Of a stretch of DNA of 64,000 nt, positions 27,001-30,000 are shown piece after piece. The stretch lies in the sequence record KP682380.1. The stretch is one strand, 5' to 3'. Within the stretch, counting starts at the first letter, position 1; each line of letters starts with the position of its first letter. The stretch comes from Escherichia phage PA27. Position numbers: made by a program.

Positions 27001-30000
27001 ACGAATGGCATACGCTGGCTTTCCGCTTTGCCGGGAATAACAGCCTGCAGGTGACGCCGGTTATTGATGGTCAGGATGGCACACCGTTCACGCTGACGCA
27101 GTCACCGGTCAGTGCCTTTGCGGCGGATAAACTGCATGTGACAGACATTACCAGAGGTGCGACTTACCCGGTACTGATAGACAGCATTGCGGTGGAAGTG
27201 AACAGCACAGACACTGCGGCATGATAAAAAAACCGCCAGCGACAGGAATGGACGCTGGCGGTGGTGATACCTATGGAGAAAAAATAAAGGAACGATACTT
27301 TCGTACTCTGGTTTTTAATGAAAACAGTTCTTATTGTCAACAATAACGGAAAGAAATTATGACATTTCTGAACCAGTTAATGCTGTACTTCTGTACGGTG
27401 GTCTGTGTGCTGTATCTCCTTTCGGGTGGGTACAGGGCCATGCGTGACTTCTGGCGCAGACAGATTGACAAAAGGGCCGCTGAGAAAATCAGCGCCAGTC
27501 AGTCAGCCGGAAGCAAACCCGAAGAGCCGCTCATTTAGCGGCAACTTTCTTAATCACACCTTTCGACGAGAAAATCCCATGTCAGAAATTACATCCCTGG
27601 TCACTGCAGAGGCAGTGAAGGACGTCCTGCGCTCTGAAGAAGTCCGGAGCGCACTGAAACAGAAACTTCGCCATAACCTGGAAGCGCGTCTTGATGCAGA
27701 AGTGGATGCCATTCTGGATGAACTGCTTGGTGTACAGGCAGAGCCACCGACTGAAGCGGGAGATACCACCGCAGAGAGCGGTGAAGTTCAGCCTGAATCA
27801 CCGGTCGCCGATGCGACTGAACCTCAACCCGAATCGGTCATGATGCTGTAACGGGGAGTCAGGGCCATCAGTAAACAGCTGCTGGCCTTTTTCATGTTGT
27901 GAGCTTCCGGATTGCGGGAGACGGGGTATGTACCAGATGGAAAAAATCACAACAGGTGTGTCATACACCACGTCAGCGGTGGGAACGGGCTACTGGTTCC
28001 TGCAGTTGCTGGACAGGGTTTCCCCGTCTCAGTGGGCGGCAATAGGCGTGCTGGGGAGTCTGCTGTTTGGGCTGCTGACATATCTGACGAACCTGTATTT
28101 CAAGATTAAAGAAGACCGGCGTAAGGCGGCACGGGGAGAGTAAGCTGATGAGCAGGAAACTCCGCTATGGTTTATCGGCTGCCGTTCTGGCGCTGATTGC
28201 CGCAGGTGCTTCTGCGCCTGAAATCCTCGACCAGTTTCTGGATGAAAAGGAAGGTAACCACACCACAGCATACCGTGATGGTGCGGGTATCTGGACCATC
28301 TGCCGTGGAGCCACCCGGGTGGATGGTAAGCCTGTTATTCCTGGCATGAAGCTGTCGAAGGAAAAATGCGACCGGGTTAACGCCATTGAGCGTGATAAGG
28401 CGCTGGCATGGGTGGAGAAAAACATCAAAGTGCCGCTGACCGAACCCCAGAAAGCGGGGATCGCGTCATTCTGTCCGTACAACATTGGTCCCGGTAAGTG
28501 TTTCCCGTCGACGTTTTACAGACGAATTAATGCAGGTGATCGAAAAGGTGCCTGCGAAGCTATTCGCTGGTGGATTAAGGACGGTGGCAGAGACTGCCGT
28601 ATTCGTTCAAACAACTGTTACGGTCAGGTATCCCGTCGTGACCAGGAGAGCGCGCTGGCGTGCTGGGGAATCGACAGATAAGAAGAATATTTTGCTGAAA
28701 AATGAGGTTTGCTTACATGGACGGATAACACGAAATCCTGCAAATTGGCAAAATGTAAGTGAATAAAGTCAAAACAGTTGTTTAACACTCAGGCACCGTA
28801 ATGATGCCTTTGTCATTTCTGCGCATCTCACGCGCATCTCACAACACAGAACCTTTCAGGATGACCCTTGAGGATACCGGTTTGGCTGTCGGTGCCTTTC
28901 TGTGGGCTGGATTCCTGTGAGACAAGGTTCATCACTAAAAGGAAATAACCGATGAATATGATGGCCGTGCCGTTTCACGGCAACTCTCTTTATGTAGTTA
29001 ACCATAATGGCGAACCATACGTTCCCATGAAACCTGTCGTTGCGGGGATGGGGCTGGCCTGGCAATCACAGTTGGCTAAGTTAAGACAGCGTTTTGCGTC
29101 AACTATAACGGAAATCGTTATGGTTGCTGAGGATGGGAAACAACGCAATATGGTGTCCATGCCACTTCGAAAACTTGCCGGCTGGCTACAAACCATTAAT
29201 CCCAACAAAGTAAAACCCGAAATCCGCGATAAGGTCATCCGGTATCAGGAAGAGTGCGACGATGTTCTTTACGAGTACTGGACGAAGGGTTTTGTCGTTA
29301 ATCCCCGTAAAATGAGCGTGATGGAAGAACTCAACCAGGCTTGTGCTGACATGAAACGGGATAAAAACATTGCCAGTGTGTTTGCTACCGGGCTGAATGA
29401 GTGGAAACAGGTTAAAGCCGCGCATGTATCAAAAATCCGTACGCTGGTAAATGAAGCGAATATGCTGATTGATTTTGTCCTGGCTGATACAGGCAAAGGG
29501 AAAATAACAAAGGCGGATTGATGGGGTGGCTAATGATATCAGATAAACTCATAACGCTGGTGAAGAGCCTCTGTGTACTTGTCGGCATTTCATTTTTAGT
29601 CATGCTGGTTGCCATTTTCTTTTCCACCGCCTGGCGAGTCCTGACGTTATCGGGACTGGTGGGGTGAAAGAGAGATGAACCGTGTTCTGTGTGTGGTGAT
29701 TATTGTCCTGGCGGTTGGCTATGGTGCGCTGTGGCTGGCAACAAACCATTACCGTGACAACGCGCTCACCTACAAAGCGCAGCGCGATAAAAAAGCCAGA
29801 GAGCTGGAACAGGCGAATGCCACCATTACTGACATGCAGGTGCGCCAGCGTGATGTTGCTGCGCTCGATGCAAAATACTCGAGGGAGTTAGCCGATGCGA
29901 GAGCTGAAAATGAAACTCTGCGTGCTGATGTTGCCGCTGGTCGTAAGCGCCTGCGGATCAACGCCACCTGCTCCGGTACCGTGCGTGAAGCCACCGGCAC

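Follow-up and report, generated by a model that had tools for sequence, protein, structure and literature searches.

A conserved pseudoknotted leader RNA probably gates translation of the ant-like gene in the lysis region of Escherichia phage PA27

In the 64,000-nucleotide stretch of Escherichia phage PA27 DNA that was analysed (record KP682380.1, hereafter the window), an ant-like gene of 189 codons (ECs_1214, also called d_ant; 28952..29521, + strand) lies between the endolysin and spanin genes of the lysis region. An earlier reading of the sequence without database searches (the sequence-only reading) had proposed this gene, followed by a small hydrophobic open reading frame (ORF), and both ORFs and their coordinates hold. 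The gene is already known, having been annotated ant since the first Shiga toxin (Stx) phage genomes, and in itself it adds nothing new; the novelty is a structured, conserved leader RNA of approximately 135 nucleotides (28817..28954, + strand) that precedes it. The explanation considered probable is that this known cassette of the late operon is gated at translation by the pseudoknotted leader, and that its protein is one of an exchangeable set of proteins that share such a leader. The cassette would consist of a terminator-like hairpin, the leader, the gene of the two-domain protein, and a coupled gene for a membrane protein of 48 amino acids. The leader is a covariation-supported pseudoknotted RNA of paradigm phages (P22, HK639, and Stx phages of the 933W/Sp5 type), and it is found in approximately 16% of complete E. 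coli genomes (880 of 5426, with a median of three and up to ten copies) without having an Rfam family. Searched with Rfam 15 (4227 families) over the 6 kb at 26000-32000, the leader was unmatched at E ≤ 1 and received only noise of 11-14 bits at E ≤ 10; the only family found in that interval was ALIL, apart from sub-threshold noise. In a limited search of the literature on Hfq-CRAC small RNAs (sRNAs), the Pas sRNA, the Stx sRNA, and KilA-N, Rha and riboswitches, no description of the leader RNA was found.

Exactly one match to the covariance models of the leader was found in the window, at 28817-28954 (144 bits with model R1 and 142 bits with model R2, E about 1e-31), R1 being an earlier model with helices P1 and P2, and R2 a model derived from ten representative leaders folded singly. 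On comparative sequence evidence, the leader comprises a 5' hairpin (P0), a long hairpin, a pseudoknot between the loop of P0 and a bulge in the long hairpin, and a basal helix that contains the Shine-Dalgarno (SD) sequence of ant. P0 (UGCGC-AUCUCAC-GCGCA, 28820..28836, +) is part of the minimum free energy (MFE) structure of 74 of 76 leaders, and a compensatory change of its stem to GCGU/ACGC was observed in one leader (L068). The long hairpin (28852..28942, +), which has a variable apical domain and is supported by both MFE and covariation, is built of five stems on the + strand: S1 (CCUUU at 28852-28856 with AAAGG at 28938-28942), S2 (28858-28859 with 28935-28936), S3 (28860-28864 with 28929-28933), S4 (28866-28870 with 28923-28927) and S5 (28871-28874 with 28913-28916). 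Between S4 and S5 is the six-nucleotide bulge GUGAGA (28917..28922, +), which is fully unpaired in the MFE of 47 of 74 leaders and forms the 3' strand of the pseudoknot; the 5' strand is the sequence UCUCAC of the P0 loop (28826..28831, +), which covaries with the bulge (GUGNGA) approximately 90 nucleotides downstream. At the central pair of the pseudoknot, 76 distinct leaders have U-A (33), G-C (25), A-U (14) or C-G (2), with two exceptions, one of them a recombinant with a truncated ant ORF. This recombinant leader (L091, at 2516-2654 of an IMG/VR contig) joins a P0 of the 933W type (loop UCGCAC) to a core of the window type (bulge GUGAGA); the junction breaks the pseudoknot, and the ant ORF that follows is a truncated one of 132 amino acids. 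At least ten different complementary loop/bulge sequences occur among the leaders, such as GCCCAG/CUGGGC in the second copy of Arsenophonus, CCGCA/UGCGG in P22, the second copy of ECP1 and Xenorhabdus, CCCAC/GUGGG in Serratia and Symbiopectobacterium, CCGAAA/UUUCGG in Proteus, CGCAU/AUGCG and UGUCC/GGACA in copies 1 and 2 of Hamiltonella, and CUGACGU/ACGUCAG in the Xenorhabdus copy that precedes ant. The diverged copies keep the fold at sequence identities of only about 50-60%.

The architecture of a long hairpin with a bulge is the MFE structure of every representative leader folded alone. Across 77 distinct leaders, R2 finds 92.8% of the cells paired, versus 83.5% for shuffled controls and no more than 45% with the partner strand slid; 24 of its 40 pairs show double-sided change, and its covariation score of 0.246, versus 0.105, was reached by none of 500 shuffles. 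In well-aligned pairs, G.U and A.C occupy 67 and 13 cells, respectively, a comparison that is uninformative as raw counts and informative only once four edge or misaligned pairs are removed. Because G.U is tolerated far above A.C, the RNA is assigned to the gene strand. The P1/P2 structure of R1 (88.5% of cells paired, 14 of 34 pairs with double-sided change, covariation 0.182) also surpasses its own controls, and it belongs to a different explanation, regarded as unlikely, in which the leader is a two-state switch: the 5' strand GAACCUUUCAGGA would have two alternative pairing partners, the SD region in the OFF state and AAGGUUC/UCCUG (P1/P2) in the ON state, and the pseudoknot of P0 with the bulge would stabilise the latter state by stacking between P1 and P2. 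P1 is perfectly complementary both in the window (GAACCUU/AAGGUUC) and in HK639 (GAGCCU/AGGCUC), and enforcing P2 in the fold costs only 3.5-11.6 kcal/mol relative to the MFE, with no bonus counted for the pseudoknot. However, the single long hairpin explains the observed substitutions better, by the proportions of double-sided pairs and of paired cells given above; P2 is poorly kept in leaders of the HK639 type, and R2 outscores R1 by 10-18 bits on the most diverged copies. With more compensatory pairs and higher scores for diverged copies, R2 superseded R1 (GAACCUU/AAGGUUC, CAGGA/UCCUG) as the model of the leader.

The SD sequence of ant, AAGGA (28939..28943, +), is predicted to be paired within helix S1. 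The mean probability that the SD core is unpaired is 0.048, versus 0.528 when the upstream sequence is dinucleotide-shuffled, and it is lower with the natural sequence in 76 of 76 leaders. The most likely function of the leader is translational gating of toxic accessory genes. The ant cassette would be transcribed only by Q-modified polymerase that comes from S and R and passes the upstream hairpin; the CCUUU at the base of the long hairpin pairs with the AAAGG of the ant SD, and the P0 loop UCUCAC pairs with the bulge GUGAGA to form the pseudoknot; this fold would keep the downstream gene, whose DNA-binding or nuclease product may be harmful, from being translated or hold its translation low. 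Candidates for the release of translation are cleavage of the helix of approximately 20 bp by RNase III, recognition of the invariant P0 by an RNA-binding factor of the phage or the host, a small ligand, and the kinetic alternative offered by P1/P2. A more far-reaching proposal, to be entertained only tentatively, is that the leader represents a new class of riboregulator, responsive to an effector (a ligand, a protein or RNase III), in which a loop-bulge pseudoknot controls the SD helix and thereby times or limits the translation of exchangeable DNA-binding and nuclease genes in the late operons of temperate phages across the Enterobacterales. With regard to a riboswitch, the genes downstream of the leader are not metabolic.

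Several points weigh against gating of translation by the pseudoknotted fold. As a single sequence, the leader of the window does not fold more stably than shuffled sequences (z = -1.09). The covariation counts depend on an alignment that was fitted to the model, and many of the covarying cells derive from one deep split, between leaders of the HK639 type and all others. The helix that sequesters the SD sequence has no covariation because it is invariant, and in the P22-type variant the SD sequence lies a few nucleotides outside the main helix. Translational repression is a prediction from modelled structure alone, and there may be a promoter between the terminator and P0 that a consensus scan would miss.

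A sensitive DNA search found that the match of Salmonella P22-like phages to the window starts exactly at 28820; in these phages, the homologous segment of approximately 130 nucleotides follows gene 15 (Rz) and precedes KilA-N or Sb54. The leader was found before unrelated genes in ST104, ST64B, HK639, P13374 (two copies), Dewey, ECP1, UPF_BP1 and P22, the gene behind it being Rha in HK639, ant and rha in the O104:H4 phage P13374, an HNH-type gene in Dewey and ECP1, and KilA-N in UPF_BP1. A pattern scan of viral contigs yielded at least 120 loci with 66-73 unique leaders, and a scan of one genome per species yielded 53 loci, 31 of which were confirmed by the covariance model. Among these 31, 28 are labelled as Enterobacterales, the labels being Raoultella, Entomohabitans, Pantoea, Erwinia, Tatumella, Serratia, Symbiopectobacterium, Arsenophonus, Shimwellia, Trabulsiella, Enterobacter, Pseudocitrobacter, Chimaeribacter, Rosenbergiella, Apirhabdus and E. 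coli. The remaining three loci are in metagenome-assembled genomes labelled Cellvibrionaceae, Bacillota and Collinsella (L151, L169 and L174); their leaders do not differ from those of the HK639 or E. coli type, and these contigs are probably mis-binned prophage DNA of Enterobacterales.

At least ten different gene families are located downstream of the leader in Enterobacterales prophages. The 143 genes classified include Rha (45), KilA-N (43), KilA-N with P63C (14) and two groups of HNH_3 endonucleases (15 and 8), and the rest comprise P22_AR_N with ORF11CD3 (the window type), ANT/KilAC, Bro-N, T5orf172 and a few others. The ORF11CD3 tail of ECs_1214 is also present in six of ten Rha and three of ten KilA-N cassette proteins, and the tails of Rha and KilA-N proteins align with each other with an hhalign probability of 93.5%; ECs_1214 matches the Rha and KilA-N profiles weakly (E about 1e-3). 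In prophages of Proteus, Xenorhabdus and Hamiltonella, ant is again situated between the gene at the endolysin position and Rz, with a leader before each, and in those of Proteus and Xenorhabdus the holin is of a different family and the gene at the endolysin position has no Pfam match. Two leader-gene cassettes occur in one lysis region in phage P13374 (L008, at 1133-1274 and 2497-2635), in L010 (393-537 and 1998-2130), and in L034, L139, L140, L191 and L193; each paired cassette has its own leader with its own loop and bulge, and the pairings include ant with rha, ant with Bro-N, and ant with KilA-N. ECs_1214 is best seen as a member of an exchangeable late-operon set in which Rha, KilA-N, Bro-N and P22_AR_N heads are placed on a common ORF11CD3 tail, and to which the HNH_3 and T5orf172 nucleases also belong. 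The leader ties Rha, KilA-N, Bro-N, Ant-N and ORF11CD3, phage regulators whose shuffled domains have long been puzzling, into one cassette system that would be under common translational control, and it offers a handle on the role of the cassette proteins late in infection, including in Shiga-toxin phages.

The sequence-only reading had also reported a tandem 11-nucleotide repeat upstream of ant, and its coordinates were exact: GCGCATCTCAC occurs twice at 28821-28842 (+). An exact tandem duplication of 11 nucleotides is expected approximately 0.02 times per 64 kb by estimate; as a repeat it is unremarkable because Tandem Repeats Finder lists 21 such weak arrays in the window, this one with a score of 44. 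The first unit makes up the 5' stem and loop of P0, and the second unit makes up the 3' stem of P0 and a variable linker. A comparison of the units across 66 unique leaders found the duplication confined to the lineage of the window and, imperfectly, to HK639, which has GCGCATCTCA twice; other lineages have the first unit (GCGCnUCnCAC), then GCGC, and then a linker of unrelated sequence, such linkers having replaced the second unit in at least 40 lineages. What is conserved is RNA base pairing, of the P0 stem (GCGC/GCGC) and of the loop UCNCAC with the distant GUGNGA, and the suggestion that the repeat is an element bound by protein was therefore not upheld. The window has a tandem repeat because the linker that follows P0 happens to read UCUCAC again, and the repeat is, as judged from the aligned leaders, a lineage-specific accident of the 3' stem of P0 and the adjoining linker.

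In an alternative account considered decidedly improbable, some phage or host protein binds the 11-nucleotide repeat as an operator or iteron, and the product of the ORF is a genuine antirepressor that acts late in infection against CI-type repressors, those of Sp5 or of co-resident prophages, and inactivates them. E. coli O157 Sakai does carry many lambdoid prophages, and the recurrence of GCGCATCTCA in HK639 favours an operator; opposed to it are the second unit, which the remaining lineages in the comparison have not kept, and the conserved positions, which covary with a site 90 nucleotides downstream as fits pairing in RNA and not a site in duplex DNA. Homology favours an antirepressor in part: the N-terminal domain of ECs_1214 (P22_AR_N of Pfam, residues 5-113, E 1.4e-45) belongs to a segment with 50% identity over 127 amino acids to residues 10-136 of P22 Ant. 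However, P22_AR_C was absent from ECs_1214 by Pfam and nothing aligned to residues 137-300 of P22 Ant; the only match at the C-terminus was ORF11CD3 (residues 122-164, E 5.5e-6). Because only residues 1-127 resemble P22 Ant and the half that corresponds to P22_AR_C is missing, the name antirepressor is a homology label for one domain, and the function is putative. Control of the immI type (arc, mnt, sar) was not found near ECs_1214, whose neighbours are R and Rz, and the same slot and leader are also used by nucleases and by Rha and KilA-N proteins. In the literature, d_ant has been proposed as an antirepressor as speculation only (PMC4426718, PMC10732415) and discussed as a putative target of the small RNA 24B_1 (PMC4426718); no experiment that demonstrates antirepressor activity was found in that literature, and a search by locus tag found no functional study of ECs_1214.

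The architecture of P22_AR_N followed by ORF11CD3, with a length of approximately 188 amino acids, is shared by all of the best 120 of 2581 database matches to ECs_1214, and the hosts of those 120 are E. coli, Salmonella, Photorhabdus, Xenorhabdus, Serratia, Proteus, Providencia, Arsenophonus, Sodalis and Hamiltonella. The AlphaFold (AF2) model of ECs_1214 has predicted local distance difference test (pLDDT) values of about 80-88 in the N-terminal domain and low confidence in the C-terminal helices. No solved relative was found; the best PDB neighbours of the N-terminal domain, neither of them significant, were the Ski/Dachshund domain (E 0.1, template modelling score 0.5) and the APSES domain of Mbp1 (E 0.76), both of which are small DNA-binding alpha/beta domains.

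The presence of the leader at a mosaic boundary, where homology between E. coli and Salmonella phages begins exactly at 28820, the homing-type nucleases encoded by some of the downstream genes (HNH_3, T5orf172), and the exchange within the leader that the recombinant L091 displays might indicate that it is the DNA that is conserved, the leader being a linker for recombination or a homing site in the exchange of cassettes among lambdoid phages, with no function as RNA. This is very improbable, given that compensatory changes 90 nucleotides apart would be needless in duplex DNA, that G.U is tolerated and A.C is not, that the SD sequence is occluded in 76 of 76 copies, and that the diverged copies retain the fold at the low identities noted above. 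Scarcely any credence attaches to a small peptide encoded by the leader region (ORF 28801-28920, or from ATG 28861): despite a match of ORF 28801-28920 to phrog_16173 (E 3e-21) and a hypothetical protein annotated there in several records, leaders of the 933W type stop after five codons, those of the HK639 type have no ATG, ST104 loses the stop codon, and of the seven substitutions that separate ST104 from the window only one is synonymous, so that coding was rejected for lack of conservation as coding sequence across lineages. ORF 28801-28920, over the leader of the window, and SPUPF_00038 of UPF_BP1 are small 'hypothetical proteins' called by gene callers, and PHROG 16173 appears to have been built from translations of non-coding leader RNA; the leader explains such spurious annotations of small ORFs.

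The ant cassette and its leader can be compared with several known systems. The ant or d_ant genes of Stx phages (VT2-Sakai/Sp5, 933W, phi24B, and ORF B82 of the Stx1-converting phage) are identical to ECs_1214 in sequence and position and are annotated as 'antirepressor' or 'phage antirepressor N-terminal domain-containing protein'; the structure of the leader, the shared ORF11CD3 tail and the relation to rha are not described in the published work on these genes. P22 Ant (300 amino acids, of the immI region) has the P22_AR_N domain in common with ECs_1214, which differs in having no P22_AR_C and in being outside immI, in a late lysis operon behind a structured leader. The rha gene of P22 and phi80 belongs to the late operon, and its product reportedly inhibits growth of the phage when the host is deficient in IHF. 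P22 rha resembles ECs_1214 in having the leader RNA (P22 39504-39641, 57 bits), in adjoining a spanin gene, and in encoding a protein of about 175-190 amino acids with a C-terminal ORF11CD3; it differs in that it has a Phage_pRha N-terminal domain and follows Rz, whereas ECs_1214 has P22_AR_N, with no Phage_pRha domain found by Pfam, and precedes Rz. In its position, leader and tail, ECs_1214 has more in common with rha than with P22 ant. For P22 rha (L189, NC_002371), the start as annotated (GTG 39575, 'ORF201') falls inside the leader (39504-39645); a start at ATG 39645, with GAAGG eight nucleotides upstream, yields MNELIANHDFDFRQLV..., matching the N-termini of other Rha cassette proteins, and the leader suggests that the annotated start is too far upstream, the annotation probably being 23 codons too long.

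Leaders that sequester the SD sequence include the pseudoknotted preQ1-II and SAM-II riboswitches, the com-mom control of phage Mu, and the hairpins that hide the ribosome-binding sites of T4 homing-endonuclease genes. The leader of ant resembles these in having a fold in the 5' untranslated region with the SD sequence in a helix, a pseudoknot, and potentially toxic products; it differs in its lack of similarity to any of the 4227 Rfam families, in a pseudoknot that joins the loop of a separate upstream hairpin to a bulge, and in serving at least ten unrelated gene families. The insert that carries ant also resembles the lambdoid morons (bor, lom) as a non-essential insertion between conserved late genes that is absent from close relatives, but it differs in that no promoter of its own was detected by a consensus scan, which is weak evidence, in its predicted dependence on late read-through, and in having the terminator-like hairpin upstream, not downstream.

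The segment at 26400-29700 is 100% identical to prophage Sp5 (VT2-Sakai) of E. coli O157:H7 Sakai and to many O157 genomes, and 27928-30139 is identical in the Stx1-converting phage and in Stx2a phages of the PA series. The lysis genes form a lambdoid S-R-Rz/Rz1 cassette, with Pfam matches to the holin, the endolysin and the nested spanin genes in that order. A DUF826 gene is located between the nanS-p gene interrupted by IS629 and S; S (27928..28143, +; ECs_1212) encodes a holin of the P21 type (Phage_holin_2_1, E 7e-33), and R (28148..28681, +; ECs_1213) encodes an endolysin, a lysozyme with a hydrophobic N-terminus (Phage_lysozyme, E 6e-25). The gap between R and ant is 270 nucleotides and non-coding. 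It begins with a spacer (28682..28791, +), the first approximately 90 nucleotides of which are common to Stx phages without ant, according to alignment with Stx2_14040 and ArgO145; the sequence at 28682-28775, directly after the stop codon of R, is conserved both in Stx phages with the ant insert and in those that lack it. The spacer is followed by a terminator-like hairpin (GGCACC-GUAAU-GAUGCC with one C/A mismatch, then a T-rich tail; 28792..28819, +). Alignments show a strong GC hairpin followed by T6 at this site in most other lineages, and a 'terminator' is annotated at the equivalent place in the HK639 record. Downstream of ant and the small ORF are Rz, the i-spanin gene (29675..30139, +; Phage_lysis, E 1e-49), with Rz1 embedded in it (29895..30080, +; Rz1, E 7e-22), and bor (30171..30464, - strand; Lambda_Bor, E 3e-30). 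In the related Stx phage Stx2_14040, R and Rz are unchanged but are separated by another filler of approximately 300 nucleotides, with no ant; R abuts Rz directly in phage ev207, and other relatives carry different genes in the position of ant. Because homology with the ant-less phage stops near 28775, the insert is considered to consist of the hairpin, the leader, ant and the small ORF.

A consensus scan of 27300-30900, which is weak evidence, found no sigma-70-like promoter on the + strand, and expression of ant is predicted to be late because of this; the late expression that the sequence-only reading had proposed agrees with it. The only features flagged by the scan for promoters and terminators were hairpins within the leader and at the start of ant, which were judged to be due to chance.

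The small ORF at the 3' end of the insert (29521..29667, +; 48 amino acids, equal to ECs_5707 of RefSeq) encodes a small single-pass membrane protein that matches phrog_4906 (E 1.5e-30), with a conserved core that starts at ATG 29533. It is present in 275 phage records, and its frame and length are kept at 63-70% amino acid identity, also behind a gene of the ANT/KilAC type (Stx1a_99E13); third codon positions have 14-15 differences, versus 7-9 at each of the other positions. ECs_5707 is, by these comparisons, a real gene. Its ATG at 29521 overlaps the stop codon of ant (TGATG), through which it would be translationally coupled to ant.

Elsewhere in the window, a copy of IS629/IS1203 (25684-26897, - strand) with OrfA and OrfB interrupts the nanS-p/yjhS esterase gene and contains the ALIL frameshift pseudoknot of Rfam (26500-26616, 121 bits). 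An ORF of 89 codons at 26955-27224 (ECs_5706) is the C-terminal remnant of this esterase, and just downstream of it, at 27224-27301 (- strand), is a sub-threshold Rfam match to Esr41, an sRNA of enterohaemorrhagic E. coli (28 bits versus a gathering threshold of 102, E 0.03). A 30-nucleotide tandem repeat of approximately two copies is located at 17587-17663 (Tandem Repeats Finder score 93). The 12-nucleotide unit AAATCGATCATG is repeated 4.4 times at 31009-31061 (+), within an ORF resembling the terminase small subunit (30873-31679), and this array encodes the peptide repeat (K/E)IDH(E/K)(I/T)DH.

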